Shown: positions 284-60,562 of the stretch, piece by piece | Layout of the letters: every line of letters begins with the position of its first letter | How positions within the stretch are numbered: the first letter of the stretch is position 1 | Assembly (NCBI GenBank): GCA_965215565.1 | Contig: CBDCDZ010000004.1 | Coordinates: 2,720,001-2,784,000 of the forward strand | DNA: 64,000 bases | Reading direction: 5' to 3' | Source: Trueperaceae bacterium | Lineage (GTDB): Bacteria; Deinococcota; Deinococci; Deinococcales; Trueperaceae | Position numbers and translations under genes: made by a program | The notes under the pieces: generated by a model | Database searches by the model: none | Told to the model about the DNA's origin: nothing | The model's input: only the letters and a program-made list of their open reading frames with translations

Positions 284-539
284 TAACGGTTCCAAGACAT
301 ACTGAGACAGATGAGCGCTTTCCGTAGGCTTTCGCCAAAGGCGGGAGACGGAAGTTTTGGCAACGCTAAAGGCGTCATCACCAAACGTGCGTGCTACGTT
401 TCTGAAAGCTGCTCCGCGGAAGCGAGCAGTCTGAAAGCCCGCAGGGACGCAAGTTTGCTGCCTAGTAACGCCACTTCGAACAGTGAGAACATTTCAAACT
501 AGCTCCGAACGTTAGTGAGACAGACTTTGATACCTGCTA
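284..539 (-). mobile_element. TAGC-ended MITE-like dispersed repeat, copy with several internal inserts
   Basis: Reverse complement starts TAGCAGGTATCA and ends GCGCTCATCTGTCTCAGTATGTCTTGGAACCGTTA, nearly identical to the end of copy 54542-54725. Confidence 0.75.
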
Positions 540-540
540 C

Positions 541-653
541 TACAGCGGTTAGCAGAAGTACTGAGCTTGAATCACGCAGGTATCATCTCATGATGTGCGT
601 GCTGCACAGTGTTTTATCTCGTGAGATTGGCTCAAACCAGATGATACCTGCTA
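541..653 (-). mobile_element. TAGC-ended MITE-like dispersed repeat, minimal ~110-bp copy
   Basis: Perfect GCAGGTATCATCT/AGATGATACCTGC stem; close match to 17034-17144. Confidence 0.8.
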
Positions 654-746
654 TACATAAACTCCGTTATGGAATTTTGCTTTCCTGGAGGGAAACTTCG
701 TAACCAGCAAACGCTTCGGGTTGGCTAGCTGGACCTTATCTGAAAC

Positions 747-764
747 AAGGGGTTGAAACCCCTT
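747..764. repeat. REP-like palindrome AAGGGGTTGAAACCCCTT
   Basis: Same palindrome recurs at 40058-40081. Confidence 0.6.
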
Positions 765-847
765 ATCGTCGCGTGAAGACAGCAGAAGGAGGGCGGCATT
801 CGACTTTTACGTTTCGCCGCGTTCTATCCTCGCTGTTCTATCCTCAC

Positions 848-2134
848 TCAGCCCGACAGCCCCCGCTCACGCGCCCACACGACGGCTTCGGCGCGGGTGT
901 GTACGCCCAACTTCTCATAGACGCGCGTCACGTAGTTGCGCACGGTCTGTTTGGCGATGCCCAGGTCCTCTGAAATCGCCTCGTTGGAGTGACCCTGCGC
1001 CACGCGCTCTAGCACTTGGCGTTCGCGCTTGGTCAGCTCAGAGACCATCTTGGGGTCAAGCTCGCCGGCTTGAAGCTGCGTGAGCTTTTCAACCACCGAG
1101 CGGCTGAACCAGGCGGTATCTTGCATGACCGTGTTGATAGCTTGCATCAGTTCCTCTTCGCTCTGCTTGCGCTTAGTGATGTCGTAAAACATATGCAACA
1201 TACCGTTTTTGCCGTTGAGCGCGATGATTTCGGTAGAGGACAAGATATTGCGTATATCGTCGTGTTTGGTGCGTATATGCAGCTCGACCTCACGGTACGC
1301 GCCCTTGTCGTCCGTCGCCTGCCGAATCGTTTTCTGGTCTTCGGCGGACGCCCACAAGCCTAGCGCCTCGCTCGTGCGCCCTAGCGCCTCATCATGAGCG
1401 TAGCCCGTGAGCCGCTCAAAGGCGCTGTTGACCTCTAGGAGCGTTCCGTCCTCTAAAGAGGTGATGATCGCAGCAACGGGACCGATGCGAAAGGCTTGGC
1501 GGAAGCGGAGTTGGGAGCGCCTGAGCGCCTCCTCCATCTCTTTGCGTTCAGAGATGTCGCGCAGCCCCCAGCGCAGGGTCACCATATCACCCTCTTTAAC
1601 CTGCACCACCTTGACTTCGACGGTGGGCGCTCGCTCTTCACGCTGCATTTTAAGTTGCAACTCCCAGCGTTCGGGCTGCGCCGCTTCCACCTCTTCCTCT
1701 CGCCGCGCCAGTCGCGCTAACGCCTGGCGAAAGTCGGGTTGGGCGCTGCTACGCAAGTAGACTGACAGAGGTTTGCCGCGCAAGTAGTCAGTCGGTTTGC
1801 CTAGAAGACGCTCGGCGGCGCGGTTCGCCTCGCGAATCACGCCCGAGGTATCCGTGACAAGGTAGCCGTCCGGCGCGAACTCGAAGAGGTCGCGGTAGCG
1901 CTGGCGCTCGCGCTCTAATCCCTCTTGCGCCTGGATGAGCGCCTCGTTTTGCTGCGTCAACTCTTCCTCAGCGACTTGAAGCTCCTCTAAGGTAGTCGAA
2001 AGCTGCTCGTATACCTCTAAGTCGGCAAGTACGGGGTTATCCGTGCGGTCTTTCAAGGTGGCGATGTAGCCCTGCAATTTTTCGATGCGTTTGGTAAAGC
2101 CGGTAGTCACGGTTTTACAGTGTCCCTTCCGCAT
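848..2134 (-). CDS. Coiled-coil + PAS-PAS + LuxR-type HTH transcriptional regulator
   Basis: Two PAS-like segments (FEFAPDGYLVTD; FRIGPVAAIITS) and C-terminal LTKRERQVL...GHSNEAISEDLGIAKQTVRNYV LuxR motif; no receiver domain. Confidence 0.85.
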   Translation of the reverse strand: MRKGHCKTVTTGFTKRIEKLQGYIATLKDRTDNPVLADLEVYEQLSTTLEELQVAEEELTQQNEALIQAQEGLERERQRYRDLFEFAPDGYLVTDTSGVIREANRAAERLLGKPTDYLRGKPLSVYLRSSAQPDFRQALARLARREEEVEAAQPERWELQLKMQREERAPTVEVKVVQVKEGDMVTLRWGLRDISERKEMEEALRRSQLRFRQAFRIGPVAAIITSLEDGTLLEVNSAFERLTGYAHDEALGRTSEALGLWASAEDQKTIRQATDDKGAYREVELHIRTKHDDIRNILSSTEIIALNGKNGMLHMFYDITKRKQSEEELMQAINTVMQDTAWFSRSVVEKLTQLQAGELDPKMVSELTKRERQVLERVAQGHSNEAISEDLGIAKQTVRNYVTRVYEKLGVHTRAEAVVWARERGLSG

Positions 2135-2217
2135 ATCTCCCTGGGGTCATCCTAGAACTTCTATAGTTTCCTATAAGAAAGTGTAGCGTCTTTTACGGTT
2201 TAGAACTAGACGTTTGC

Positions 2218-2559
2218 TTACGTTTCTTTAGGTACATCTGTACTCTCTTCAGCATCTAAGTCAGCATCTAAACCCGCAGCCGAGTCGGGCCTAGAATCGG
2301 TCTCTAGCTCATCTAACTTAGCCACTTTCGCCTCAGTCTCGTGGTGTTCGTCGTGGGCGTCGTGGAGGGTCTGCTCGAAGCCGTGGGACTGGTCCTCGAG
2401 TTTATGAATCCCCGCTTCCGCGCGTTCGATCGTCGTTTCCAACCTCTTTGTACTCTTTTTTGCCCTAGCGACTTCCGCCTCGAGCTTCTGCGCCAACGCT
2501 TCTACCTCTTGCGCTTTCGCCTCTGCTTCCGCCGCCTCGCTTTTGTCACGCTCGTCCAT
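2218..2559 (-). CDS. Small acidic coiled-coil protein
   Basis: E/A/K-rich heptads; overlaps cheR stop with a GGGGG SD-like sequence upstream. Confidence 0.6.
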   Translation of the reverse strand: MDERDKSEAAEAEAKAQEVEALAQKLEAEVARAKKSTKRLETTIERAEAGIHKLEDQSHGFEQTLHDAHDEHHETEAKVAKLDELETDSRPDSAAGLDADLDAEESTDVPKET

Positions 2560-4450
2560 TTGCCGCCCCCTCTTCCATAAGCAGAATAACCCCCCGCAAA
2601 TCGTTGTCCAGCGCGTCGAAGCTCGTACAGGTCACGCGGCACTGAAATGTTCTGCCGCGCCGATTGAGCGCCTTTAATACGACCTCTTCGTGTTTGGACC
2701 TATCCGTTAGACAAGCCCGTACGGGCGCTTTTAGGGCGTCCACATCGACGCCAATATCCAAGGTGAAGAGCGAACGCCCCGCCACCTCGTCGGCGCGTAG
2801 CCCCCACAGGTCTTCGGCGCGGGCGTTCCAGATATAGATATTGAACTGATAGTCCAGGACGATGACCGCCGCGCGCAAACTGCCTAAAATGGACTCCAAA
2901 AAGATGTTTAAGCGGTCCACCTCTTCGGTGCGGCGGCGCATCTCTTCGTTCATCGTCTCAAGCTCTTCGTTAGTGGACTGCATCTCCTCGTTCATCGTTT
3001 CAAGCTCTTCGTTAGTGCTCTGCATCTCTTCGTTGGTGGTCTCCAACTCCTCCACCGTAGACTGAAGCTCTTCGTTGGTGGTCTCTAGCTCTTCGTTGGT
3101 GGACTGAAGCTCTTCGTAGGCGGTCTCTAGCTCCGTGTTGGACAGCTCGAGGCTGTTCTGTAAGCGCTTGTGTACGCTCACGTCGCGAAAGAGGATGCTG
3201 ACGCCTAGCGCTTTTATCCCGTTGCCAGAGCCGTTGCCGCCATTGACCAGCGGGACGATCTGCACGTCCAAGTGGAGCACGTCGCCTTCGGAAGCGTACT
3301 CGAGGCTGCCCAAGTGAATAAGCTCGCGCGTCTCCAGCACGCTGTCGATATGGGTGCGCAGTTCGGTGGGCTGATAGGAGAGCCTGAGATCTTGAAAGTT
3401 GCGCCCGATGTCCTCGTCGGAGATATCAAAGAGGGTGCGGGCGCGGGTATTGGCGAGCGCGAGCCGCCCTCTGGCGTCCACCACAATTTGCGCTTCGGGC
3501 GACACGTTAAAAGCAACCTCGCGCAGCCGCACCTCTTGCGCCACCCACCGCCCCCCCTCTTCGCCGCCCGCTTGGGTCAGCGTGAGGAGGCGTTCGCGCA
3601 AGCTCCCACTTTCGGACTTCGTGAAGAGCCGGTGCTTGAGGCTGAGCGGCTTAAAGCGCTCCGAGCGCGAGAGCATCGTCTCGGCTTTGCCCAAAAAGAG
3701 CGTGCCGCCCTCCTTGAGCGCGAAGTGAAAACGCGCCAAAACGCGGCTCTGCAGTTCGCGGTTAAAGTACATCAGCGTGTTGCGGCAGACCAAGAGGTCG
3801 AGCTGCGAGATGGGCGCGTCGCTCACTAAGTTGTGCCGCCCGAAGATCACAGAGCGGCGCAAGTCGCTCCGAAAGACGTAGCTGCCCGAGGCGTACTCGA
3901 AGTAGCGCTCCAAGAGGTCCGCGTCCACATCCGCGACCCTATCCGCGCTATAGACTCCCCCCCGCGCACGCACGAGGTCTTCCTCGTCGATATCGGTGGC
4001 GTAAATCTTGACCTGTTTGCGAAAGGCGTTCGCGCCCAGCGCCTCGGCGAGCAAGATGGCGAGCGTGTACGCCTCTTCGCCCGTCGCGCAGCCCGCACTC
4101 CAGGCGCGAATGGGCCCATCCGCCTTTTGCGCCACAAGCGGCGCGATGACCTCTTCGTCAAGCGCGCGCCACGCCGCCTCGTTGCGAAAAAAAGAGGTCA
4201 CGTTAATCAGGACGGTATTGAAGAGCAAATCGAACTCTTCGGGGTGGACCTCCAAATAGTCGAGGTAGTCACTGAACGATTCCACCGCGACGACTTGCAT
4301 CCGCCGCTCGAAGCGCCGCATCAAAGAGGTGCGCTTGTAGCCCGTAAAGTCGATGCTGCGCTTGACGTTTAAGTACTCGAGCAAGTCCTCAAACGCCGCT
4401 CTATCCTGGGCTTGCACCTTATCGTTTTCTGGACCGTCAAAGGCGCTCAC
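2546..4450 (-). CDS. cheR: CheR-type methyltransferase fused to PAS - coiled-coil - PAS
   Basis: INVTSFFRN, WSAGCATGEEAYT, YATDID and LLVCRNTLMYF CheR motifs; EELQSTNEELETT repeats. Confidence 0.9.
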   Translation of the reverse strand: MSAFDGPENDKVQAQDRAAFEDLLEYLNVKRSIDFTGYKRTSLMRRFERRMQVVAVESFSDYLDYLEVHPEEFDLLFNTVLINVTSFFRNEAAWRALDEEVIAPLVAQKADGPIRAWSAGCATGEEAYTLAILLAEALGANAFRKQVKIYATDIDEEDLVRARGGVYSADRVADVDADLLERYFEYASGSYVFRSDLRRSVIFGRHNLVSDAPISQLDLLVCRNTLMYFNRELQSRVLARFHFALKEGGTLFLGKAETMLSRSERFKPLSLKHRLFTKSESGSLRERLLTLTQAGGEEGGRWVAQEVRLREVAFNVSPEAQIVVDARGRLALANTRARTLFDISDEDIGRNFQDLRLSYQPTELRTHIDSVLETRELIHLGSLEYASEGDVLHLDVQIVPLVNGGNGSGNGIKALGVSILFRDVSVHKRLQNSLELSNTELETAYEELQSTNEELETTNEELQSTVEELETTNEEMQSTNEELETMNEEMQSTNEELETMNEEMRRRTEEVDRLNIFLESILGSLRAAVIVLDYQFNIYIWNARAEDLWGLRADEVAGRSLFTLDIGVDVDALKAPVRACLTDRSKHEEVVLKALNRRGRTFQCRVTCTSFDALDNDLRGVILLMEEGAANGRA

Positions 4451-9636: not shown

Positions 9637-9903
9637 TAGCAGGTATCATCTGGTCAGCGACACTCTCACTGTGCGCGTTGCTGACTAGCACGCACATTGT
9701 GACAGCAGGTTCCTTCGGAAGCTTCGCGCAATCAAAGTCTGTCTCACTGGCGTTCGGAGCTGGTCAGCTACACTTTCACTAAAAAGAACATCGCCTAGCA
9801 CGCACTTAATTGTGATGAAATTCCGCTATTGCTGCGCAATGAGATCTGCGAAGAAGTGTTGCTTCGCATGACTTCGTCCAAGCAATGATAAGTGGAACTG
9901 CTA
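9637..9903 (+). mobile_element. Two fused TAGC-ended repeats (truncated copy plus insert-bearing copy)
   Basis: TAGCAGGTATCATCTGG at 9637, second start CAGCAGGT at 9703, end GGAACTGCTA at 9903. Confidence 0.75.
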
Positions 9904-15802: not shown

Positions 15803-15984
15803 TTCAACCTCCGGCTGTTTTATCCCTACTCGGTACACGCTTGGTACACGGTGGTGAAAAGCAGCGCTTCTATACTCAAAAATAAACCCTGGACATCCGA
15901 ATCAGCTCTCGAACGACGCCCAGGACTCGCCCGACGAAGCGGGTTTTTCGAAACTCGACTACATCAACCGAGTTTGAATTGTGC

Positions 15985-16054
15985 AGCTATAATCTCACGC
16001 AAGTCAATCGAAGCTCTTTCGAGCGAAAACGCTTGTGACCAGACAATACCTGCT
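15985..16054 (-). repeat. Degenerate copy of the TAGC-ended repeat abutting the tRNA 3' end
   Basis: GACCAGACAATACCTGCT resembles the family end ACCAGATGATACCTGCT; TCACGCAAGTCAATC resembles the second arm. Confidence 0.4.
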
Positions 16055-16057
16055 TGG

Positions 16058-17033: not shown

Positions 17034-17144
17034 TAGCGGTTATCAGAAGTACTGAGTTTGAATCACGCAGGCACCATCCCCTAAAGTGCGTGCTGAACGA
17101 TGTTTTATCTCGTGAGATTGGCTCAAACCAGATGATACCTGCTA
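17034..17144 (-). mobile_element. TAGC-ended MITE-like repeat, minimal 111-bp copy
   Basis: TAGC...GCTA ends; close match to 541-653. Confidence 0.8.
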
Positions 17145-17291: not shown

Positions 17292-17543
17292 TAACAAGTA
17301 TCATCTGGTTTGAGTGTACGTAAGTTTGTCCCGGTTACACCGTTTTCGCGTCTGCGAAAGGGAAACTTCGTAAGCGAAGCAACGCTCTCACTGTAAAAAA
17401 CACCGTTTCCTAGCGGAAAACTGCGCAACTAGCACGCACATTCGAAGATGAAATCCCGCAACGGCAGGGCGGCCTGCCCGTAACGCTAGTCCTTGCGGAC
17501 AGAGATCTGCGGAACTCCGTCTCAGTATATTTTGGAAGTGCTA
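17292..17543 (+). mobile_element. TAGC-family repeat with nested inserts
   Basis: 5' half nearly identical to 36396-36495; 3' half nearly identical to 54627-54725. Confidence 0.8.
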
Positions 17544-28426: not shown

Positions 28427-28520
28427 CAGCAGGTATCATCTGGTCACAGAAGCTCCCCATCTATGAGGCGGTGCTCAACATGTAACTGCAAGAGATGATA
28501 TCTGCGGGGCTCAATCTCAG
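28427..28520 (+). mobile_element. TAGC-family repeat immediately after the acnA stop
   Basis: GCAGGTATCATCT...AGATGATATCTGC stem. Confidence 0.7.
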
Positions 28521-28548
28521 GAGGGGCGATTCACGAGTCGCCCCTCCT
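28519..28548. repeat. REP-like palindrome AGGAGGGGCGATTCACGAGTCGCCCCTCCT
   Basis: Related palindrome at 38203-38224. Confidence 0.6.
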
Positions 28549-28646: not shown

Positions 28647-29225
28647 ATGATAAGACCTCTTGTTGCCGCGTCCGCTTTTCTTCTCCTGCTTGCCTCTTGC
28701 GCTCCGTCGGTAAGTTCTTCTAATTACGCAGAACAAATTTCTGAAAACCACTATCGTTACATTTCTACGCTCGGCATAAAAGAACCTAAACGGAATGTCG
28801 TGCCTGTGCGCGCAGGTACGACGCTTCTCTTCGAAGACGCATTCGCAATTAGAGGTATTATTCTTGCTAAAGCGCCCGTAAGGAATAAGAGGAGCGATAC
28901 TCTTATCCACAACACAACAAACGAGTACGAACAAAAACGGACGAAAGCACCTAGAGGGTGGGGAGCGCAGCTCAAAGACTCCCGGACGGTAGTTGATTTC
29001 AATTCAACTGTGAAAGCACCATCTGGTTGGCTTGAAGGACCTTATGAGGTATATATGGGTGGCGGTTCTAAAATAGAGAAAAACGGCACAATCATTTATA
29101 GCCATATCATCGAAGTTTCTGTACCAAAAGAGGCGCAGCCTGGACGGTATCCAGTTGAGGTTAGGTACCGTGGAAAAGGTAACAGAGAAGATAGGTCCAC
29201 TAACTTCATCGTCGAAGTCCTCTAA
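28647..29225 (+). CDS. Hypothetical lipoprotein (AT-richer)
   Basis: LASC lipobox; 192-aa ORF. Confidence 0.6.
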   Translation: MIRPLVAASAFLLLLASCAPSVSSSNYAEQISENHYRYISTLGIKEPKRNVVPVRAGTTLLFEDAFAIRGIILAKAPVRNKRSDTLIHNTTNEYEQKRTKAPRGWGAQLKDSRTVVDFNSTVKAPSGWLEGPYEVYMGGGSKIEKNGTIIYSHIIEVSVPKEAQPGRYPVEVRYRGKGNREDRSTNFIVEVL

Positions 29226-29683: not shown

Positions 29684-29812
29684 CAGCAGGTATACCCGCT
29701 CCGCAGGGCACTTTCATCTGGTCAGAAACACTCTCACCACAAAGAACACCGACTGGCACGCACATTTTAGGATAATATTTGCGCTCAAATGTTCTAAGTG
29801 GAGTTGCCGATA
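29684..29812 (+). mobile_element. TAGC-family repeat with a 21-nt insert, abutting the rlmH start
   Basis: CAGCAGGTAT[21 nt]CATCTGGTCAGAAACACTCTCAC...GCACGCACATT. Confidence 0.65.
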
Positions 29813-29827
29813 GATTAACGAGCAAAT

Positions 29828-36395: not shown

Positions 36396-36698
36396 TAGCA
36401 AGTATCATTTGGTTTGAGTGTACGTAAGTTTTTCCCGGTTACACCGTTTTCGCGTCTGCGAAAGGGAAACTTCGTAAGCGAAGCAACGCTCTCACGATGT
36501 AGAACACCGTTGCCTAACGGCAAACTACGTCATTCGCTTTGCAAAAACTTCGTCCCTACGGGCTTTCAGAAAGCAGCACGCACATTTGAGAATGAAATCC
36601 CGCTCTCAGGCGAAGCCGTCCCGCTAGGCTTTGCCTGAGAGCGGGATGGCTGCGGCTGAGATTTGCGCTACTCCAATCAGCACTTATGTTAATTGCTA
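36396..36698 (+). mobile_element. TAGC-family repeat, longest copy (~300 bp, multiple inserts)
   Basis: TAGCAAGTATCATTTGG...TAATTGCTA; shares modules with copies at 17292 and 284. Confidence 0.8.
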
Positions 36699-37585: not shown

Positions 37586-38203
37586 ATGGTGGTGGAGGGC
37601 GTGAGATCAATCATAAAAATCATCTTAGCTACACTTTTGCTGCTGGGGCACGCGGCTTGGGCTCAAACGGAAACGTATCTAAGCGAAAATGGCACGAACC
37701 CCGAGACGACGCGGGGCGAGTCGCGGCTTTTGCGCTACGAGCGGGAGGATTTTCCCGTAGAGGTTTATATCCCACCTGCCGCCTGGCTGGACGCTGAGAG
37801 GCAGGCTAGAATCACCGTGCGCCGCGCCTTTGAAGCGTGGGCGGACGCCGCGCCAGAGCTGGTGAGCTTCACCTTTTTAGAGGAGCCGAGCGAGAGTGCG
37901 CTGACCGTCGATTGGGAGCCCTTGGAGGGGCTCGCCGGGTCCTACCGCTACAGCTTTAGTGTGGAGTCGGATGGACGCTACGACTACCGCGCCACGAGTA
38001 TCATCTTGGACCCAGCGACGGAGCCGGACGCGCTCTACCGCTTCGCTGTACTGCAAGTCGGACACGCACTCGGGCTCTTCGGGCGCAGCCCCTTCGAGGG
38101 TGACGCGCTGAGCGCAATCCCGAGCGGCGAGATAACGGAGCGCGACGCCGCGACGCTGCGGGCGCTCTATGCGCTGCCGAGCGGTACAGTGCTGAGAGAA
38201 TAG
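37586..38203 (+). CDS. Matrixin/metzincin-like exported protein with degenerate zinc motif
   Basis: RRAFEAW...LQVGHALGL..RS...ITERDAATLRALY; HExxH replaced by LQxxH. Confidence 0.6.
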   Translation: MVVEGVRSIIKIILATLLLLGHAAWAQTETYLSENGTNPETTRGESRLLRYEREDFPVEVYIPPAAWLDAERQARITVRRAFEAWADAAPELVSFTFLEEPSESALTVDWEPLEGLAGSYRYSFSVESDGRYDYRATSIILDPATEPDALYRFAVLQVGHALGLFGRSPFEGDALSAIPSGEITERDAATLRALYALPSGTVLRE

Positions 38204-38224
38204 GGGCGACTCATGAGTCGCCCC
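38203..38224. repeat. Perfect 22-bp palindrome GGGGCGACTCATGAGTCGCCCC (REP-like or bidirectional terminator)
   Basis: Lies between convergent genes; related to 28519-28548. Confidence 0.65.
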
Positions 38225-38232
38225 CGCTCAGT

Positions 38233-38793
38233 TTAATTGCCTGGTTCGATCAAGCCGTAGTCACCGTCGTGCCGCAGATAGATCACGTTGATCTCTTCGG
38301 TTTCCATGTTGCGAAACATGAAGAAGGTGTGACCAAGCGCCTCCATCTGCATGGCGGCGTCTTCGGGTGACATAGGGCGGAGCACGTGACGCTTGACGCG
38401 GGCGATGGCGGGACCGTCGTCCTCGGACTCATCCTCGTCTAAAGGGGGCAAGTCGGTGACGGGCGGGGGGGGCGGCGTGTCGTGGGTACGGCGGGCGAGT
38501 TTGCGCTCTTTGAAGCGGCGGAGCTGCCGCTCGAGTTTATGCACCACCTTGTCCACCGCCGCATAGGCGTCTTGCCCGCTCTCCTCGGCGCGCACGATGC
38601 CGTGCGGCACGTTGAGCTGCACCTCGACTTTGGCGGGTTGCGCCGCGTCGCCGTCCGCCGCGTAAGAGATGACGACTTTGGCGTCCACCACGCGCTCGGA
38701 GAAGTGCTCGAGCTTCTGCAGCTTCTCCTCGGTGTAGCTGCGCATGGCGTCGGTTACGTCGATATTGCGCCCAATCATTCTGTAGATGTCCAT
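38233..38793 (-). CDS. hpf: Ribosome hibernation promoting factor (long HPF)
   Basis: GRNIDVTDAMRSY, YAAVD..KLERQL and C-terminal PMSPEDA...YGLIEP. Confidence 0.93.
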   Translation of the reverse strand: MDIYRMIGRNIDVTDAMRSYTEEKLQKLEHFSERVVDAKVVISYAADGDAAQPAKVEVQLNVPHGIVRAEESGQDAYAAVDKVVHKLERQLRRFKERKLARRTHDTPPPPPVTDLPPLDEDESEDDGPAIARVKRHVLRPMSPEDAAMQMEALGHTFFMFRNMETEEINVIYLRHDGDYGLIEPGN

Positions 38794-38914
38794 GTCTCCT
38801 CCACATCATCCTAGGCTTGCGTTTTGAGGTGTCACCCTCTGTATGTGCACGCAGTGTAACACTCTGACTCTGTCAGAAACGTGTCAGGAGTGGGGTGAGA
38901 AAATTACTTGACAA

Positions 38915-39069
38915 TAACGGGTATCGTCTGGTCAGAAACACGCTTACTGTAGAAAACACTGTTTCCTTTTGCTGCGCAAAAACTACGTAATCGGAAAACT
39001 CCGTAATTAGCACGCACATTCGGTGATGATATCTGCGGCACTTCGTCTCAATATGTTTTGGAAGCGCCA
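38915..39069 (+). mobile_element. TAGC-family repeat with a doubly nested mini-insert
   Basis: TAACGGGTATCGTCTGG...GATGATATCTGCG...TTGGAAGCGCCA. Confidence 0.75.
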
Positions 39070-39140
39070 ACAAGAAAGAACGTCGGGTTATGACCTCTCG
39101 TATAGTAGAGTCTCATTCCGATCAGGACTATCCCAGACGT

Positions 39141-39851
39141 TTAGGTGAGCCAGCGGCGCAAGCGCGAAGGCTCCTTATGCTCTTCACGCTGTTTTTCGCA
39201 CTGTGCCAAACGCACCCCTAACTCTCGTTGCTGCGCCTCGAGTACCTCGATTTGCGCCTCTTGCACTTCGACGAGGGCGCGGAGCTTCTTCATCTCTTTG
39301 GGTTCTTGGCTGCGGTCCGTGGGCAAGAGCGCAGCGTGCAGACGCTGGCGCTCCTTATTCAAAGTTTGAAGTTTTTCGGCAAAGTCGTTTGCGCGCGCAC
39401 GAAGGGGTTGTGCATTGGGCGTAGGTTCTGTGGGCGTAGGTTCTGCGGGCTCACGTTCGGCTGCGTGCGGTGTGCGCCCCGCTAAAAGACTTCTGATTCG
39501 CTCGCGCAAGTTTTTGTCGCCCAAGGGCTTAGGGATGATGAGGTCAGCCTTGACGATCTTAGCGACGCCCTTAATTTCGTCGGTCAGTGTGGCGTGGCGC
39601 GACGTGACTAAAACGATAGGCACCTCTCTAAGTCGCTTGACGCTCTTCATCTTGCGGCAGAGGTCGAAGCCGTCCACCGAAGGTAAATCGGTTTCTAAAA
39701 TCGCCACGTCGGGCGTGTGTTCGCGCAGGTAAGCGAGCACGTCTTGACCGTCGGTAAAGGTTTGCAGCGCGTAGCCGTCGCCGTGAAAGATGAGGTCAAA
39801 CAGTTCGAATTGTAAAGGGTCGCGGTCGGCGACGAGTAGAGTGTAGGGCAT
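39141..39851 (-). CDS. Atypical receiver-domain protein with C-terminal coiled coil
   Basis: LLVADRD...ILETDLP..DGFDLC...PIVLVT...IPKP; ORF-track extension to 39935 lies inside a repeat. Confidence 0.75.
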   Translation of the reverse strand: MPYTLLVADRDPLQFELFDLIFHGDGYALQTFTDGQDVLAYLREHTPDVAILETDLPSVDGFDLCRKMKSVKRLREVPIVLVTSRHATLTDEIKGVAKIVKADLIIPKPLGDKNLRERIRSLLAGRTPHAAEREPAEPTPTEPTPNAQPLRARANDFAEKLQTLNKERQRLHAALLPTDRSQEPKEMKKLRALVEVQEAQIEVLEAQQRELGVRLAQCEKQREEHKEPSRLRRWLT

Positions 39852-39880
39852 AACGTGACCTCTTCTCAAGCTGTCCCTGA

Positions 39881-39991
39881 TAGCAGGTATCATCTGGTTT
39901 GAGACGCTCTCACTGTAGAAAGCATTGATGAGCACCCACTTTCAGAGATGATATCTGCGGCAATCTGTCTCAGTAAGTTCTGGAAGTGCTA
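39881..39991 (+). mobile_element. TAGC-ended repeat, minimal 111-bp reference copy
   Basis: TAGCAGGTATCATCT...AGATGATATCTGC...GGAAGTGCTA. Confidence 0.85.
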
Positions 39992-40057
39992 CGAGTACCA
40001 AGATAGACCCAAGGTCACGCCACACGAGTGGAAGACCTCACACTCGCTATAGGGTTG

Positions 40058-40081
40058 AACAAGGGGTTGAAACCCCTTGTT
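40058..40081. repeat. REP-like palindrome AACAAGGGGTTGAAACCCCTTGTT
   Basis: Second copy at 744-764. Confidence 0.6.
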
Positions 40082-40125
40082 TCAGTGAGGTGCTCTCTAC
40101 TCGAGCCGTTTTATGCCAGCTGTAG

Positions 40126-40383
40126 CTACTGAGCCCGCTTCTCCTGTCCACCTTTCGCGGGCAAATTCGCCACCAACACCATCCGGTCTCCTTGCTGGTC
40201 GATGTTCACATCGTAGCCGCTCTCATCCGCCGGGAAATACTTGCTGATGACCTGCACCAACTCCGCTTTGAGTTCGTCCATCTTGGCGGGCGAGAGCTTA
40301 GCGCGGTCGTACTGCAAGACTAACTTGAGGCGGTCTTTGACGGTGTCTTTGCTCTTCTTTCTACCGAAGAGTCCATTAAACAT
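40126..40383 (-). CDS. minE: Cell division topological specificity factor MinE
   Basis: KDRLKLVLQYDR...ELVQVISKY...LVANLP; ATG at 40383. Confidence 0.92.
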   Translation of the reverse strand: MFNGLFGRKKSKDTVKDRLKLVLQYDRAKLSPAKMDELKAELVQVISKYFPADESGYDVNIDQQGDRMVLVANLPAKGGQEKRAQ

Positions 40384-41191
40384 TGCTCGCTCCAAACAGG
40401 CGGCGGATATACGCCATGAAGCCGCCACTACTCTCTAATGCCGCGTGTGGCACCTCTTCGCCGCGCAACCGCTTAGCGATGCTCCTAAAGGCGTCCCCCG
40501 CCCCGTTCTTGCTCGCTTCGCTCAAGCTAATCGGGCTGCCGATGTTCGTCGAGATGATGATTTTCTCGTCCTCGGGCACGATGCCGATGAGCTTGATGCC
40601 TAAAATCTCTAAAACGTCATCCACTTCCAACATATCGCCGCGCTTGACCATGTCAGGACGCAAGCGGTTGATGATGCACTTGACCTCAGTGATCTCCCTC
40701 GCCTCTAAGAGCCCGATGATGCGGTCCGCGTCGCGCACCGAGGAAACCTCGGGATTCACGACGACCAACGCGCCTTGCGCCGCCGACGCCGCCGTCTGAA
40801 AACCCGACTCGATGCCCGCAGGCGAGTCGATCAGGATACGGTCAAAGCCCTCTTCTTCCAAGAGCTTATTCACAGTCTCTTTCATGTGGTCTTCGGACAA
40901 CGCGCTCTTGTCGCGCGTCTGCGACGCCGCCAAGAGGTACAAATTCTCCACGCGCTTGTCTCTTATGAGCGCCTGCTTGAGCTTACAGTTGCCCTCGAAC
41001 ACGTCGATAAGGTCAAAGACGACGCGCCCTTCAAGTCCCATGACGACATCTAAGTTGCGAAGCCCCACGTCCGTGTCGATAACGACGACTTTTTCCCCTT
41101 GTTGCGCGAGCGCAGCCCCCACGTTGGCGGTGGTGGTGGTCTTGCCGACGCCACCCTTACCCGAGGTTACGACGATTGCTTTGGCGTCCAC
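40376..41191 (-). CDS. minD: Septum site-determining ATPase MinD
   Basis: SGKGGVGKTT, GLRNLD, DSPAGIE and C-terminal amphipathic helix. Confidence 0.96.
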   Translation of the reverse strand: MDAKAIVVTSGKGGVGKTTTTANVGAALAQQGEKVVVIDTDVGLRNLDVVMGLEGRVVFDLIDVFEGNCKLKQALIRDKRVENLYLLAASQTRDKSALSEDHMKETVNKLLEEEGFDRILIDSPAGIESGFQTAASAAQGALVVVNPEVSSVRDADRIIGLLEAREITEVKCIINRLRPDMVKRGDMLEVDDVLEILGIKLIGIVPEDEKIIISTNIGSPISLSEASKNGAGDAFRSIAKRLRGEEVPHAALESSGGFMAYIRRLFGASNV

Positions 41192-41297
41192 TGATGTTCC
41201 TCCTACCTGCTTTTGGCGCGTAATTCCCTACCTGACACACTTTGTCGTGTGGTCAAGATGTTGACGTTAGAATTGTAACAAGCGAGTATATCAAGTA

Positions 41298-41406
41298 CAG
41301 CAAGTAGCATCTGGTTACGAACGCTCTCACGAGTTAGAACATTGACGAGCACACATGATGAGATGCTACTTGCGTTGCTCAATATCCCTCAGCTTCAGGA
41401 TAGCTA
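41298..41406 (+). mobile_element. TAGC-family repeat with compensatory stem changes
   Basis: GCAAGTAGCATCT (41300) / AGATGCTACTTGC (41361) perfect inverted repeat differing from consensus in both arms. Confidence 0.8.
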
Positions 41407-41468
41407 GTCAACGTGTCAGCATTGAAAATGCTTCGGCTTTCAGCCTTAACTTGTGCTGACTAGCTGCT

Positions 41469-43761
41469 CTAAGCCTTGCTCAGATTCGCATACTTCACCA
41501 AGAGCCGCTTGAGTCCCGCACTTTTGAACGATACGGTGATTTCCGCTCTCGCGCCCTCACCCGATACACCGACGACAGTTCCCTCGCCAAACTTGGGATG
41601 CGTGACCTTTTCGCCGCCTCGGTAACTGGTCTCTTCACCTTGATTGGAGGTGCTTTCAACTTTGGGTGGGCTCCAAGTTGGGCGGCTGTATTTGCTAAGC
41701 CTCTTGGCGTCATGCATCTCCTGACCCAACACGTCGATTTCCATCAGCATACTTTTGGGTACGTCCTCCAAAAACCGACTCGGGCGGCTGAACTCGGTGC
41801 GCCCAAAGGTCATGCGCGACTCGCAATTGACCAGGTACAAGGCTTCTTGCGCTCTGGTAATGCCCACGTACAAAAGGCGGCGCTCCTCTTCAATCTCTTG
41901 CAAGCTCCCCGTCGAGTTGCGGTGTGGGATGAGGTTCTCCTCCATGCCGACTAAGAAAACGACGGGGAACTCCAAGCCCTTCGCGTTGTGCAGCGTCATA
42001 AGCGTGACGGCTTCTTCGGGTACATCGCCCTGGTTGACCGCTTTCACCGCGCGGTCGTCCAAACTCGCCATCAGCGAGGCTTCGTCCAAAAACTCGGCAA
42101 TCGAGCCGCCCGCCTCCTCTTGCCACTCGGCAACCGCGTTAATGAGTTCGTCCAGGTTTTCGATGCGCCCTTGCGCCTCGAAGGACTTTTCATCTTTTAG
42201 AGACTGTAAGTAGTTCGACTGGTCGAGCACGGCTTTTAAGAACTGTGCGGCGGGTAAAGTCTCGGCGGCTTCCTTGAGGTCGTCCATCAATTCGACAAAC
42301 TCAGCGATGCGCTTCACAGCGGGCGTACCGCGCAAAATCTCTTCGGCGTTTCGAAGAGCATCGGAGAACCGCTCGCGCCGCCGCGCTGCCCACGCGGTGA
42401 GGTTGTCCTCGCTCGTCTTGCCGATACCGCGTTTAGGACGGTTTAACACGCGCTTCCAGGCGATGTCGTCGGCAGGGTTTAAGGCGGCGCGGGCATAACT
42501 CAAAATATCCTTGACCTCGCGCCGCTCATAGAAGCCCACCCCGCCGACAATTTTAGCGGGGATGCTGGCGCGGCGCAGGGCTTCCTCCAGAACTCGCGAT
42601 TGCGAATTCATCCGGTACAAAATGGCGAAGTCGTTAGGGGTGAAGTCCTTTTCGGCCTGTAAAATCTCAATCTGCCGCGCCACGAAGTCCGCCTCGGCGC
42701 GGTGGTCTACGGCTCTATAGAGCTTGACCTTTTCCCCTTCGCCCTTGACGGGTTTGAGGTCTTTTTCTAAACGCCCTTCGTTGTGCAAGATGATGGCGTT
42801 GGCGAGTTGTAAAACGCTGTTGACGGAGCGGTAGTTGAGTTCTAAGCGGTAGACCTCTGCGTCTTCATAATCGTTACGAAAGTCTAAAATATTGCGAACA
42901 TCCGCGCCACGAAAGGCGTAAATCGACTGGTCGGGGTCCCCGACAGCCATCAAGTTGCGATATTTAGACGCCAACTGCCTCGTAAGCTGATACTGCGCCG
43001 TGTTCGTATCCTGGTACTCGTCCACGTGGATAAAAACCGCGCGTTGCTGCACCTTGTCGAGCACATCAGGGTAGCCCTCGAAAAGCTCCACGGTGCGCCC
43101 TAAGATGTCGTTGAAGTCTACGGCGTTGGCGCGGCGGAGCCTCGAGCCGTACCTTTCAAACCCCTCCACGATGAGTTCTAAAGGCATCCCCGAAATCATC
43201 GCCCCGAAGAAGCGCTCCCCCTCTTGCGCCAAATCTTGCGGCGTCCACAGGTTTGATTTCGCCCTGTCAATCAACGCTCGCAAAACTCGAGGGTTCGCCT
43301 CTCCCAACCCCTGTACCGACTCCAAAATCTCCTTTAAGACCTCCAACTGGTCCGTGTCGTCATAGATGGCAAAGCCCGGCTGGAGGTCAATCAACTCGCC
43401 GTAATGCCGCAAAATCCGCAAGCACGCCGAGTGAAAGGTGCTGACCCAGAGGTCTTTTGCTTTAGGTCCCATGAGGTGCGCCACGCGCTCTTTAAGCTCG
43501 CCCGCCGCCTTGTTGGTAAACGTCACTGCCAAAATTTCTTGTCGGGTAGACCTCTTGCGCCTCCATCAAGTAGGCGATGCGGTGCACGACGGTGCGCGTC
43601 TTGCCCGAGCCCGCGCCCGCGATGACCAGCGCGGGTCCTTGAAAGTGGCGGGCGGCGGCGCGTTGCTCCTCGTTGAGAACGTCTAGGAGGGGGTGCTCAG
43701 TCTCGGCGTGAGTTTCTAATCGGGTTGCTGGCGTAACTGGGTTTGGAGCAGTATCAGACAC
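41469..43761 (-). pseudogene. pcrA: PcrA/UvrD DNA helicase with an apparent +1 frameshift near 43540
   Basis: AGAGSGKT Walker A in ORF 43492-43761; [22 protein letters not shown] and EERRLLYV in ORF 41469-43532; one extra A in CCG ACA AGA AAT TTT G. Confidence 0.8.
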
Positions 43762-46772: not shown

Positions 46773-48098
46773 ATGAGGTGGAGAGTGCAAAGCTCAATCG
46801 CGGGCGTATTTCTAACGGCTCTACTGGCGAGTGCGCTACTCGCCAGTTGCGGCGGCGCTGGAAATTCTGATCAACCGGGTGGGCAACCTGAGCCCGGTAC
46901 TACGGACCTCACGGTTGGGGCGAGCGGGGCGGCGTGGGCGGCATATAGGGATGGGGACGGCGCGTGGCAAGTCTTAGAGGGTGAGGCGCGCTACGTGTTG
47001 GCGCTGGAGCACCCCGCAGGACGCTACAGCGTCGCGCACGTCTGCGCTTCTGAATTGGATGCGGGTGAAGAGGTAGAGGCTGCGCGTGAGGTCACGGTGT
47101 CGCTCCTCTACGCGACGTTAGCCGCGCGCCCTGAGGTTGCGACGCCTTGCGCTGACGAGACCGAGAGCGACTTCTACACGCTTTCAGGAACAGTGAACGG
47201 GCTCGAGGCGGGCGAAACGGGTCTTGTGTACGGTCAGTTTTTGGCGGACGCGGTCACAGCGGACGCGCGCGAGTACAGCTTAGCGGGCTTTACGGCGGGC
47301 GAGTATGACCTCTTGGTCACGGTGCAAACCACGGTGCAAGATACGCCCGACGCCCCCGCGTCGGTCCTAACGCCGCCGAACGAAGTGCTCGTTCGGCAGG
47401 GCATCGCGGTACAGGGCGACGAAACCCTGAATTTAGACCTCGGTCAAGCCGCCCCGACGACGCTCAAGAACGTGCGCGTCGAGGGCGCTCCCCCGGACGG
47501 CGAGGTCAGCTCGAGCCTCTCGCTGACCACCGAGCGCGGCACGAGCGCTCAGCTAGGGGGGTTCGCCGCGTCGGGCGCGGAGGCGGCTTCGTTCGACTAC
47601 GCCGCGCTGCCCACCTTGCCCGAGGGGACGGCTTACCGCGTGTCGGTGGAGAGCTTCTCTGAAGATGAGCGGGGCGAGCGGCTCGCAACCTCTTTCCAGC
47701 GCACCTTCACCGCGCCCGAAGACCTCACGCTGAGCGTGCCAGATACGTTAGGGGCGGCGGCGCTAAGCTCAGACGAAGGGCGTCCGACCTTGACCTGGAG
47801 CGCCTACCGAGAGGGTGCAGACTACCACGCCATATTTGAGGATTCGAACGACGACGCAGGCGAGACGCGCTACCTCGTCGCTCTAGACGCGGCGTGGTTG
47901 CCTTCAAGCGCGAGCGAGTTGAGCTACACCGTGCCCGACTTTCGCGAGTTGCCTGGCTGGAACAACGCCTGGACGCTCGGCTCAGACCTCTTCTGGACGC
48001 TGGAGGCTCGCACCGAAAGTGAGCGCGAAGAGGTGGTGGTGAGCCGCTCGAGCGCGGTCTCCGCTGCAACCTCTGAGCCCAGTACAACCGGGCCCTGA
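46773..48098 (+). CDS. Lipoprotein of unknown function (beta-rich)
   Basis: LASC lipobox; WAAYRDGDGAWQ. Confidence 0.7.
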   Translation: MRWRVQSSIAGVFLTALLASALLASCGGAGNSDQPGGQPEPGTTDLTVGASGAAWAAYRDGDGAWQVLEGEARYVLALEHPAGRYSVAHVCASELDAGEEVEAAREVTVSLLYATLAARPEVATPCADETESDFYTLSGTVNGLEAGETGLVYGQFLADAVTADAREYSLAGFTAGEYDLLVTVQTTVQDTPDAPASVLTPPNEVLVRQGIAVQGDETLNLDLGQAAPTTLKNVRVEGAPPDGEVSSSLSLTTERGTSAQLGGFAASGAEAASFDYAALPTLPEGTAYRVSVESFSEDERGERLATSFQRTFTAPEDLTLSVPDTLGAAALSSDEGRPTLTWSAYREGADYHAIFEDSNDDAGETRYLVALDAAWLPSSASELSYTVPDFRELPGWNNAWTLGSDLFWTLEARTESEREEVVVSRSSAVSAATSEPSTTGP

Positions 48099-48122: not shown

Positions 48123-48297
48123 TAGCAGCGCAACGTGCTGAGATGCAATGTCGCAGGTCTCATCCTGCAATGTGAGAGCTAGTCGGTACTTTATCGGGTG
48201 AGAGCGTTTATGACCACCGCTGCTACGCAGAGACTTCGTGAACCGAACGCAGTGAGACAGACTTTGATTGAGCGAAGCTATACGAAGTAACCTGCTA
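48123..48297 (-). mobile_element. TAGC-ended repeat with inserts
   Basis: TAGC...GCTA ends; shares GTGAGACAGACTTTGAT module with copies at 284 and 9703. Confidence 0.75.
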
Positions 48298-54541: not shown

Positions 54542-54725
54542 TAGCAGGCATCATCTGGTTTGAGTGCGCGAAGCGATGCGAAGCAACACTCTCACTATGC
54601 AAAGCGGTGTTCAACACGCACATTCGGAGATGAAATCCCGCAACGGCAGGGCGGCCTGCCCGTAACGCTAGTCCTTGCGGACAGAGATCTGCGCTCATCC
54701 GTCTCAGTATGTCTTGGAACTGCTA
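54542..54725 (+). mobile_element. TAGC-ended repeat with 21-nt and ~50-nt inserts
   Basis: TAGCAGGCATCATCTGG...CTTGGAACTGCTA. Confidence 0.82.
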
Positions 54726-56116: not shown

Positions 56117-56211
56117 TAGACCCTTCTAAGGTTCACCGCGTTGTACGAGAGCGACGCGCCCACGTCCGCGAGCGAAAAAGTAGACCCTTCTAAGGGCGAG
56201 CGAAAAAGTAG
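56117..56211. repeat. Complex local duplication containing a 41-bp copy of the MFS 5' coding region
   Basis: 56131-56171 equals 56017-56057; TAGACCCTTCTAAGG at 56117 and 56181; GCGAGCGAAAAAGTAG at 56168 and 56196. Confidence 0.85.
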
Positions 56212-56772: not shown

Positions 56773-57500
56773 TCTTTCTTGACTGTATACCGGGTTGCTT
56801 CGTAAAGGGCGATCCCTACCGCTACCGCGAGGTTTAAGGACTCGATAAGCGCCTCTTGAGGAATGACGACGCTTTCGCCTACCTCGCGGTACGCTTTTGG
56901 CAAGCCCGGTCCTTCGGGTCCGAAGACGAGCGTGAAGGGAGAGGTGAACTCAACTTCTTGTAATTCGCGCTTAGCGTCCAGCATAAAGGGGTAAAGCTGG
57001 CGTGAAGAGTTCATCTGGTACGCCTCCAAGTCATCAAAATAGCGCGCGTTGAGCGCGAAGACCGCGCCCATCGAGGCGCGGACGACGTGTGGGTTGAAGA
57101 GGTCGGCGGCGGGGCGCAGCAGCGCTAAGTCGCGCACGCCAAAGCCCAACATCGTCCTGATGATGGTGCCCAAGTTGCCCATATCGCTCGGGTTGACCAG
57201 CAAGAGGTGGTTCGCTTCCTTTTGCAGCGTCATCTCATATTTTTCAAACACCGCGAACACGTAAACGTTGCCTTTGTGCGCGAGCTTGTTGACGAGCTTG
57301 TCGTTGACTTCGAGCGGAATACCGTGGGCGTCGCACCGAGCGCGAATCTCCGCGACGCCCTCGCTTACTTCTCCTCTGGAATGCGCGACGACGCGCAGCA
57401 CCTTATCGGGGCGGTGGGTCAAAAGCTCCAGCGTTGGAAAGATGCCGAAGCTGTAGGAGTGCGCGAAGTCCTTTTTGTAGCGTTTGAACTGCACCTTCAA
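56769..57500 (-). CDS. TrmH/SpoU family RNA methyltransferase
   Basis: GNLGTIIRT, RASMGA, FGPEG.GL and ESLNLAVA. Confidence 0.9.
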   Translation of the reverse strand: MKVQFKRYKKDFAHSYSFGIFPTLELLTHRPDKVLRVVAHSRGEVSEGVAEIRARCDAHGIPLEVNDKLVNKLAHKGNVYVFAVFEKYEMTLQKEANHLLLVNPSDMGNLGTIIRTMLGFGVRDLALLRPAADLFNPHVVRASMGAVFALNARYFDDLEAYQMNSSRQLYPFMLDAKRELQEVEFTSPFTLVFGPEGPGLPKAYREVGESVVIPQEALIESLNLAVAVGIALYEATRYTVKKD

Positions 57501-58495: not shown

Positions 58496-58818
58496 GCCTC
58501 GTCGTCCCAGTTGTCCAACTCTAGGTCATCTAACTCTAGGTCATCTAACTCTAGGTCATCTAAGTCTAAGTCGTCCAAGTCTAGGTCATTTAAACCCAGG
58601 TCGTCCAAACCTCTTGCACGCCGAAGTTGCTCGGCGCGCCACGCTCTTTCTTCCTCAAGCCTTAGTAAATACGCATTTTTGTCACGCCTCGCCTGCGCCT
58701 CGCGCTGGATGCGGGCTAAAAGCCTCTCTCCCGCTGGTCTCTCGACTTCCTCTTTGACGGCGCGTCTTTCCGCTCGCCGCTTCGCCTGTTTGGTGCGTCT
58801 TTTGCTCTTCTTCGCCAC
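58492..58818 (-). CDS. Charge-segregated small protein with (DDLEL)n tail
   Basis: Basic N-terminus; 15-nt tandem repeat GTCATCTAACTCTAG at ~58511-58610; TACTAT -10 before GTG. Confidence 0.6.
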   Translation of the reverse strand: MAKKSKRRTKQAKRRAERRAVKEEVERPAGERLLARIQREAQARRDKNAYLLRLEEERAWRAEQLRRARGLDDLGLNDLDLDDLDLDDLELDDLELDDLELDNWDDEA

Positions 58819-59044
58819 ACCTTATAGTACGGCGCGGCGCGTGAAGGGAAGGTAGGCTCGAGAGGGTAAAAAGTTCGGAATAAAAGCTCGTTACTTCTTA
58901 ATGCTCGCTCTTTGACCTTCCTACTGTAGAGAGCGCTACTGATATCGCGCGCTAGTGCGCCTATGGTGAACTGTTAGTAAGTTCACTGTTCAGTTGTGGG
59001 GGTCAGCCTCTCAACGAAGTCGCCAGAGACACCAAGGGGGTTAG

Positions 59045-59593
59045 ATGGATAACTCGAGAGACACTACAAGCACCATACCTAAGGGCAGCGCGTCCAGCAC
59101 AGGGCACGACGATCCGAGCGCGCAAGAGGCGGCGCAAGACGTCGCTAAAGACGCTCAGGCTAGAGCGAAAGAGGTCGGGCGCGCCGTCTCTGAACAGACC
59201 AAAGAGGCTGCTGAGGAGCTGCGCCAGAGCGCGGTGGCGTCCTTTTCGGACAGCAAAGGGCAGCTCGCCAAGCAGATCGCGGGGCTCGCCAAAGCCTTTC
59301 GGCGCGGTAGCGACACCTTGCGCGACGAGGAGCTAGGCGACTTCGCTCGCTTGAGCGACGGGGCGGCGGAGCGGCTCGAGGACCTCAGCGATCAGCTAGA
59401 CCGCAACACGGACGACCTCTTGAGCGATTTACAAGATGTCGCGCAGGAGCGCCCAGTGCTCTTTGTGGGCGGGCTGCTCACCATCGGCGTCCTGTCAGCG
59501 CGCTTCTTGAGGAGTTCGCAAGGTTCACCGAGTTATGATGATGACTACGACACCGACTTTGGCTATCAGGGTTACGAGCGGGGGAACGAGTGA
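59045..59593 (+). CDS. Helical stress-type protein with C-terminal membrane anchor (DUF883/ElaB-like)
   Basis: LQDVAQERPVLFVGGLLTIGVLSARFLRSS; GGGGG SD. Confidence 0.65.
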   Translation: MDNSRDTTSTIPKGSASSTGHDDPSAQEAAQDVAKDAQARAKEVGRAVSEQTKEAAEELRQSAVASFSDSKGQLAKQIAGLAKAFRRGSDTLRDEELGDFARLSDGAAERLEDLSDQLDRNTDDLLSDLQDVAQERPVLFVGGLLTIGVLSARFLRSSQGSPSYDDDYDTDFGYQGYERGNE

Positions 59594-60438
59594 GCGACAC
59601 GAGAGACAGAAATTTAGAAAACAAGAGCCCAGACGAGTTAGAGCAGGACATCGAAGAAACCCGGGCGCGCATCAGAGGAGAGATGGGCGCGCTGGGCTAC
59701 AAGCTTGGACCCGAAGGACTGCGTGACAGCGCTGAAGACGCCCTAGACGACACGCAAGAAACCGTTATCAGCGTCACGGAGCAGCTCAAAAAGGGCGTCA
59801 TTGAAAGCTCGGACAGCATCGGCGGTAGATTGTCGGCGTTCATCAAGCAGAACCCCGTGCCCGCGACGCTCTTCGGCGTCGGACTGGCTTGGCTCCTCAA
59901 ACAAGGGCAGGAGAGCCGGAGTTATACTAGGGATAGCAGCGCCGCCCAGAGAGGTGGCAGCAGAGGCGGCAGCGCGAAGAGTGTGAGCCGCGGACGCAGC
60001 GGGAGCCGATCACGCCCCGAAGGGAACGACAGCAGCCGCAGCGTGAGTCGTTCGCGTTCCACAGGAGCGGCTAGTGGCGATACGGATGACACCACGGGCG
60101 ACACCATCGTCGCCAACAAGCCCGGCGGTTCTAGCAGCTCGGGGCGCAGCGTAGGAAGTCACGGACGCGCGAGCGCGGACGCCGCGTCCCAAGGCGAGGA
60201 CGAAACGTTCCGCTCGCACTATGAGTCGAACTTCAGCGCGAACGGTGACTTCGAGGACTACGAGCCCGCCTACCGCTACGGCTTTGACTTGGCGTCCGAA
60301 AGCGAATTTCAGGGCAAGCCCTGGAACGACGCGAGGGGCGACATCAAACGCCGCTGGGACGAAGAGCGCAACGAGCCTTGGTATAAGTTTGACGGAGCAG
60401 TTGAGCACGGCTACACCACTGCGCAGTCGCGCCGCTGA
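59590..60438 (+). CDS. DUF3618-like protein
   Basis: SPDELEQDIEETRARI...L.P; NPVPATLFGVGLAWL; YEPAYRYG C-terminal domain. Confidence 0.7.
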   Translation: MSDTRDRNLENKSPDELEQDIEETRARIRGEMGALGYKLGPEGLRDSAEDALDDTQETVISVTEQLKKGVIESSDSIGGRLSAFIKQNPVPATLFGVGLAWLLKQGQESRSYTRDSSAAQRGGSRGGSAKSVSRGRSGSRSRPEGNDSSRSVSRSRSTGAASGDTDDTTGDTIVANKPGGSSSSGRSVGSHGRASADAASQGEDETFRSHYESNFSANGDFEDYEPAYRYGFDLASESEFQGKPWNDARGDIKRRWDEERNEPWYKFDGAVEHGYTTAQSRR

Positions 60439-60451
60439 GCTTCGCCATGTC

Positions 60452-60562
60452 CGTGACTATCTGAAGTTACTAAAATTGTATTACGCAGATATCATCTCCA
60501 AGAGTGCGTGCTCAACAACGTTTCTCTTAATAAGAGCGTTCACAACCAGATGACACCTGCTA
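60452..60562 (-). mobile_element. TAGC-family repeat
   Basis: GCAGATATCATCT...GTGCGTGCT...ACCAGATGACACCTGCTA. Confidence 0.72.

Follow-up and report, generated by a model that had tools for sequence, protein, structure and literature searches.

An apparently undescribed, family-restricted 111-bp repeat of Trueperaceae, probably mobilized by IS630-type transposases

The DNA analyzed here is a stretch of 64,000 nucleotides (positions 2,720,001 to 2,784,000 of the forward strand of CBDCDZ010000004.1, assembly GCA_965215565.1; below, the window) on the 4.39-Mb contig C4 of the 4.49-Mb, 58% G+C genome of a Trueperaceae bacterium. Between its genes lie many copies of a short noncoding element, family-restricted and apparently undescribed, with properties of a miniature inverted-repeat transposable element (MITE). 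The first-pass annotation had listed 15 positions for it, and a copy or fragment is present at every one (Table 1), with the correction that 284/543 and 9637/9703 are each a pair of abutting copies. An nhmmer profile built from 84 short copies of the genome, all distinct and with a median identity of 77%, gave 13 hit chains in the window; the copies at 284, 15985 and 36396, which are decayed or insert-laden, fall outside these chains and were read straight from the sequence. The genome-wide collection of copies proposed earlier was carried out with the same profile and yielded 556 hits, merging into 520 chains with 291 full-length copies, every match lying on C4 and the three small contigs having none. 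The element is short, multi-copy and free of transposase sequence inside; the proposed size of ~110 bp agrees with the modal length of 111 bp (121/291 full-length copies), but nested inserts extend copies to ~300 bp. None of the 291 lies in an open reading frame (ORF) of ≥200 aa, and the description of the copies as all intergenic holds but for one outside the window, which interrupts an IS630 pseudogene and has CTA on either side.

With respect to occurrence, an exact 17-mer pattern of the left end was found in 16/128 genomes of the family (reversed-pattern controls gave 0), and a 15-mer version in 0/236 genomes of other families in the phylum; many of the searched genomes are incomplete metagenome-assembled genomes, and these figures are counts of matches found. 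A metagenome scan returned at least 124 loci, the printed copies of which mostly have the same architecture, with a few resembling chance matches.

The flanks of the copies reveal two modes of target duplication. Outside the TA-terminated ends, only repeats of k = 3 are far above shuffled flanks, with a 3-bp duplication in 117/150 copies when strict ends are required (shuffled mean 4.7, maximum 12) and in 148/241 with relaxed ends (shuffled 7.9), the 148 duplications representing 45 different, A/T-rich 3-mers. The 291 full-length copies were divided by their right end into class A (n = 200) and the remainder, class B (n = 91), which also takes in copies with decayed ends. Class A has 3-bp duplications in 150/200 copies and TA on both sides in 0/200, whereas class B has TA on both sides in 66/91 and 3-bp duplications in 3/91. 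Repeats of four bases occur in five class A copies. The target of this class is symmetric about the duplicated bases, reading A/T-A/T-C/G on each side. A further right-end type, seen in the relative G100 and uncounted, is often flanked by TGA or TCA. The target-site duplication expected of a MITE is, then, present. The terminal TA, previously taken for that duplication, is instead the element's own, and the proposal fails for class A, which duplicates three bases outside it; a TA duplication does exist in class B, where an extra TA is repeated. Because the TA duplication of IS630-derived MITEs is absent from class A and found in class B alone, class A is not a canonical IS630-derived MITE.

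The class A right end is shared with intact IS630 elements of the congeners G001 and G002, the left end being shared only in part. The MITE profile matches the ends of IS630 loci in both species (best E value 5.5e-5, the others weak). The congener elements are 991-1051 bp in length and have two ORFs; the DDE ORF of one of them (L013, in G001) scores 120.8 bits with NF033545, the NCBIfam IS630 model (cut-off 100), and also matches PF13358, while the end of L013 matches five sites in the genome studied here at 93% over 30 nt. Flanks were counted for eight such IS630 families in G001, G002 and G138, 26 copies of which have both ends: 19 have 3-bp repeats, three have 4-bp repeats and none has TA/TA, and two of the remaining four resemble swapped flanks. 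Such a swap is seen between two IS630 copies of G002 (L063, L064) and suggests mutual recombination. Three other IS630 families with similar termini are flanked by TA in 13/13 copies. In a 15-row transposase tree, with two families left out, the 3-base families form one clade (98/97). In the alignment of a larger, 23-row tree only two columns separate the 3-bp from the TA transposases, and these are uninformative.

Within the present genome neither a cognate transposase nor a close relative of the parents was found, in agreement with the first-pass annotation, and the MITE is orphaned there despite copy pairs of 99% identity. Of three PF13358 hits considered as remnants of a partner, none has these ends, and one is merely interrupted by a copy. 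Among the relative and metagenome loci scanned (L099-L134 and L165-L288), no insertion sequence was found that has the invariant left end for a terminal repeat; four of the loci have transposase fragments, the junctions of which were not examined further. In G138 (L084, L086) a 3-base-type IS630 is inserted close to one end of a TA-type IS630, ~80 bp being repeated, and another adjoins a MITE left end; at G000:C4:1932100-1934600 (L007, L009) two MITE copies and small inserts accompany two broken IS630 elements of other types, the helix-turn-helix part recurring at C4:1277285; one IS630 copy of G001 (L024) has two short insertions in its coding region.

Evidence for movement comes from the congeners. 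Thirteen window loci were compared with G001 and G002, 11 of which have an alignable orthologous interval, and 10 of these 11 lack the element in at least one congener, which answers the earlier call for empty orthologous sites; the copy beside tRNA-Ala is common to all three species. Orientation is even, both relative to neighbouring genes (189 sense versus 195 antisense) and to replichore (138:153). The class B copy at 17034-17144 is up to 98% identical to copies in G001, compared with ~76-86% identity for genes, which suggests either recent exchange or recent shared activity.

The ends of the element are asymmetric. As the annotation described, a 13-bp inverted repeat pairs the left end with an internal site (positions 3-15 with 66-78 of the element), but there is in addition a short terminal repeat between the two ends (positions 1-5), together with an inner motif common to both (20-26). 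A MITE is expected to carry terminal inverted repeats of ≥10 bp; here the match between the ends is confined to 1-5/6 and 20-26 in class A and is better in class B. The motif at 20-26 varies jointly with its right-end mirror and, because the two change together as expected of one, is likely to be a transposase contact; bipartite binding by two helix-turn-helix motifs has been described for the IS630 family (PMC2170065). Pairing of 20-26 with 86-92 as a pseudoknot was rejected in favor of an inner terminal repeat because A-C outnumbers G-U there by 147 to 42. Positions 6-19 are nearly invariant across right-end types, and 33-50 vary freely; the invariance of the left end across genera is partly built in, because its pattern was the query, but that within the genome is unaffected. 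At four loci of other genomes (L100, L107, L123 and L201, from G036, G101, G102 and a metagenome), the left end together with a few flanking bases is repeated head to tail in units of 20-32 nt, and at L112 the right end is similarly repeated.

Superimposed on this layout are nested inserts, 229 of which are held by 137 long copies, with 182/229 being 20-25 nt in length. Their sites are clustered at 11, 23, 48, 68/69, 75 and 88, and one insert frequently lies within another; the same unit enters sites 23 and 88, which mirror one another, in opposite directions. The units occur mostly in or near the MITE rather than elsewhere (for example 84 versus 8, 94 versus 4 and 90 versus 26). The G001 orthologue of the 60452 copy and the G002 orthologue of the 15985 copy carry inserts absent here, and 31 of 47 single-insert copies are nearer to an insert-free copy, with nine nearer to a same-site copy, the insert-free pool being the larger; these differences also fit gene conversion between copies. 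Near-identical siblings exist elsewhere for 31/155 insert-free copies, 4/54 copies hit only in the stem, 4/62 hit in the inner motif and 2/20 hit in the loop, proportions that are confounded by age. Small dispersed repeats (SDRs) are defined by a length of 21-27 nt, exact sites and self-nesting, all of which are seen in these inserts. Those of Nostoc, as reportedly described by Elhai and colleagues in 2008, are 21-25-nt units that occupy exact sites in mini-transposons and in each other and form small hairpins. By analogy, the nested inserts resemble these cyanobacterial SDRs, although they belong to another phylum, are likened by description, and the likeness concerns the inserts and not the MITE.

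We consider it probable, at about 0.82, that the element is a 111-bp noncoding MITE in which an IS630-like right end is joined to a constant left module and which is moved as double-stranded DNA by IS630 transposases acting in trans. The observations that carry this reading are the repeat structure, the empty orthologous sites, the two duplication types and the intact congener IS630 elements with a class A right end and 3-bp duplication; they also bear out the annotation's proposal of a non-autonomous mobile element of the IS630/Tc1 group. These transposases would cut and paste the MITE, and would engage both of its ends via the shared outer bases and the inner motif. Class A partners would make a 3-base stagger in A/T-flanked symmetric targets, class B partners would insert at TA, and the family probably persisted by taking over right ends from the IS630 lineages active at the time. 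After insertion, the 21-25-nt inserts would strike copies independently. The MITE looks like a parasite. We give about even odds, against selection on pairing, to the view that the internal arm is a relic of the right end that an older, symmetric 78-bp element had, and that it has stayed matched to the left arm through hairpin-templated copying or paired protein binding and not through an RNA function. Symmetric 78-bp elements that end at the internal arm are found at L099 (G018), at L250 (metagenome) and, bearing an insert, near 334852 on G000:C4. Some left ends start with the complement of the bases that follow the internal arm, and these, with the symmetric copies, suggest that the arms copy each other. 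The 78-bp core as an abundant mobile unit was rejected, this genome having a single symmetric copy.

Several points weigh against mobilization by IS630 enzymes as just outlined. The left end corresponds to the parental IS630 ends only at 1-5 and 20-26, and for some copies in which an insert breaks the left inner motif there are near-identical siblings that have perfect duplications of their own, which fits poorly with that motif being required. The empty sites are too diverged for the duplications to be read base by base. Because no cognate transposase was found in this genome, the partner is deduced from congeners; for class B, the likeness of the right end to that of a TA-type family in G138 is one seen by eye. 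A 23-row tree with more outgroups unites 10/12 of the 3-base families (98/98) without placing G001a and G138a, so that a single origin for these families is not established. The symmetric 78-bp copies are rare, and two of the three have no duplication, that at L250 (TA) being the only one. Finally, in 246 insert-free cores 15/73 left-arm changes at eight positions are compensated in the internal arm, versus 5.1 in age-stratified permutations (n = 5000, maximum 13); the number of events is lower, since one of these 15 is out of register and several have a change in common. Stem covariation appears real, because private compensated changes exceed permutation, and selection on a fold would also yield it.

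The alternative that follows from this last point, the strongest of the rivals and in our view an unlikely one, retains the IS630 MITE but regards its left-end stem as a single-stranded (RNA) fold selected for spread or tolerance, much as the annotation had proposed. Among 22 copies chosen from several genera 97.9% of stem cells are paired and three pairs show double changes, a score reached by 0/500 shuffles but inflated by relatedness; two of the three mark one 20-copy subfamily and arose about once. The matched double changes reported for both arms of the 41298 copy are present. The G-U bias noted earlier exists across the stem (136 versus 18 A-C), but 125/136 of the G-U pairs lie in 7-74, 8-73 and 15-66, which take G-G or U-U in other genera, and the other ten pairs have 11 G-U versus 14 A-C. 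Similarly, the consensus alignment fold prefers the forward strand (-13.5 versus -2.2), whereas single copies fold equally on both (-28.7 forward versus -28.2 kcal/mol reverse, forward better in 62/118). RNAs of related MITEs influence mRNA decay (PMC2229807). The even orientation relative to genes, the conservation of both arms in sequence beyond pairing, the degenerate internal arm of some G102 copies and the near-identical siblings of copies split only in the stem all argue against an RNA role, as does the absence of a second consensus helix. A search of Rfam, suggested at the outset, gave only tRNA at gathering score in the window and nothing over the copies in 38800-41500 at E values up to 10; no tRNA-like sequence, promoter or terminator was found within the element, one of these scans covering a single copy. 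The covariation thus appears real, with no clear pointer to RNA.

An RNA-copied element moved by a reverse transcriptase is very improbable. The left-end tandem repeats in G036, G100, G101 and G102 and the invariant 5' end would suit it, but not the fixed-length duplications that track the right end, nor the match to IS630 ends; the reverse-transcriptase gene sought at the annotation's suggestion (RVT_1) was not found in this genome or in three of four relatives. G001 does have four copies of a group II intron-type reverse transcriptase (L352-L357, frames of 618-637 aa), its group II introns being without a MITE hit in the loci fetched. Equally improbable is an IS5/ISL2 (DDE_Tnp_4) or other 3-bp-duplicating mover, since, although 3-bp duplications are typical of some IS5 groups and PF13359 genes occur in this genome, G001, G002 and G005, 0/25 fetched PF13359 loci have MITE-type ends around the gene, and matching ends flank IS630 genes.

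Within the preferred reading of an IS630-mobilized MITE, a bolder proposal, which we advance tentatively and think unlikely, is that the invariant left end and its inverted internal copy form a portable adaptor, either folded or protein-bound. With no more than its right end and the 7-base motif exchanged, one lineage could then have been mobilized by various unrelated IS630 transposases, so switching among TA, TNA and near-random 3-base targets; the adaptor could also be where six classes of 21-25-nt mobile cassettes mainly land.

Table 1. Positions of the repeat copies in the window, with the internal parts of the reference copy and selected inserts
Positions	Strand	Feature	Congeners
39881..39991	+	Reference copy (111 bp) of class A, with right end of IS630 type; 3-mers on the two sides differ at one base	Orthologous site without element in G001 and G002
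39883..39895	+	Left arm of 13-bp stem (3-15), within invariant left end	
39900..39906	+	Inner terminal-repeat motif (20-26), offset as in IS630 ends; likely transposase contact	
39931..39939	+	Motif near the middle (51-59), conserved but not retained in every genus	
39946..39958	+	Internal arm of stem (66-78), inverted copy of left end	
39964..39991	+	Right end, matches terminal repeat of intact congener IS630 elements	
284..539	-	Class A copy, several nested inserts, CTA either side	
543..653	-	Class B copy, TA either side, abuts 284..539 copy	
9637..9702	+	Truncated left part of copy	Interval empty in both
9703..9903	+	Class A copy with nested inserts, abuts 9637..9702 fragment	
15945..16055	-	Old decayed copy adjoining tRNA-Ala; left limit approximate	Common to both
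17034..17144	-	Class B copy, TA either side	Up to 98% identity with G001 copies
17292..17543	+	Class A copy, nested inserts, TTC either side	
28427..28537	+	Decayed copy that merges with REP-like palindrome; right limit approximate	
29684..29815	+	Decayed copy, insert in left arm; right limit approximate	G002 site empty
36396..36698	+	Class B copy, two compensated left-arm changes, multiple nested inserts, TA either side	Absent from both
38915..39068	+	Class A copy, 44-nt compound insert at site 48	
41298..41408	+	Old copy, two compensated stem changes, decayed right end	
48123..48297	-	Decayed copy with nested inserts	
54542..54725	+	Class A copy, TTT either side, two inserts	Absent from G001
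54565..54585	+	21-nt nested insert at site 23, SDR-like	
54632..54683	+	52-nt compound insert at site 69 (small insert within 25-nt insert), splits internal arm	
60452..60562	-	Old copy	G001 orthologue has inserts absent here; G002 site empty

The window has other repeats and genes of note. One family of palindromes resembling repetitive extragenic palindromes (REP) is present at ~690-715 and ~40055-40080 (56 pattern matches genome-wide), and a second at 28513-28545 and 38202-38234 (16 pattern matches); in G001, the interval orthologous to 28427 has the latter palindrome but no MITE. Tandem repeats of 15 bp (58499-58603) and of 21 bp (2900-3154, inside a CheR-PAS gene) occur, as do a SlpA S-layer gene, which helps to assign the genome to Deinococcota, and three ORFs with no Pfam match (46773-48098, 441 aa; 60985-61869, 294 aa; 28647-29225, 192 aa).

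The family amounts to a natural series of one cargo placed between the ends of different IS630 lineages, which allows a direct comparison of how Tc1/mariner-type enzymes recognize ends and choose targets. In the class A parents, intact elements of 1 kb, the TA target rule has apparently been dropped for a nearly free 3-base target, a freedom that bears on how the superfamily sets its stagger and may be of interest to tool builders. With hundreds of copies bearing inserts at fixed sites, some of them species-polymorphic at one locus, the movement of 21-25-nt elements becomes approachable outside cyanobacteria. The accessible parts of the literature searched, which did not cover ISfinder, contain no description of this repeat, of a near-random 3-base IS630 target or of one MITE lineage with two duplication modes; the supplements of 10.1101/2024.01.18.576219 and PMC10017437 might list the repeat or its parent.

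MITEs of the IS630 family are well represented among bacteria, including RUP, which accompanies IS630-Spn1, ERIC/MITEEc1, MITEPlu5 and Correia elements (PMC2229807, PMC3049150, PMC6267812). Like these, the present element is ~110 bp in length, noncoding, TA-terminated and present as hundreds of intergenic copies with IS630-like ends. The terminal repeats of RUP pair with one another, whereas the present element has a single IS-like end and a left end that pairs with an internal site; MITEPlu5 duplicates TA, whereas here two duplication types exist within one family. The ~1-kb parents, with their helix-turn-helix and DDE parts and imperfect inverted repeats, are likewise typical of ISY100 and the IS630/Tc1-mariner elements. 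ISY100 inserts almost exclusively at TA, the flanking TA being the target (PMC2170065), a rule that class B obeys; in contrast, the class A parents have the TA within their own ends, and what they duplicate is an almost free 3-mer or, at times, four bases. The closest precedent in the phylum is provided by the Deinococcus radiopugnans IS630 elements ISDrpg7 and ISDrpg8, which have 3-nt repeats of TGA, TAA or TCA (PMC10017437), and by an IS630 group that we observed in Deinococcus-family genomes (L364-L372; also L360), which was found in 8/125 genomes searched and has TGA or TCA flanks in most copies with ends found; the Thermus element ISTth6 is listed with 2 bp. ISDrpg7 and ISDrpg8 differ in that their repeats are TNA and their inverted repeat is another one, compared with 45 different 3-mers here. 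Among eukaryotic relatives in the IS630-Tc1-mariner (ITm) superfamily, Fot (TAA, TAAA) and Bogo (TAA) also have non-TA duplications (PMC7386202, PMC9942856); they show that the superfamily can move to 3- or 4-base duplications, although theirs are fixed words, in a eukaryotic pogo lineage.

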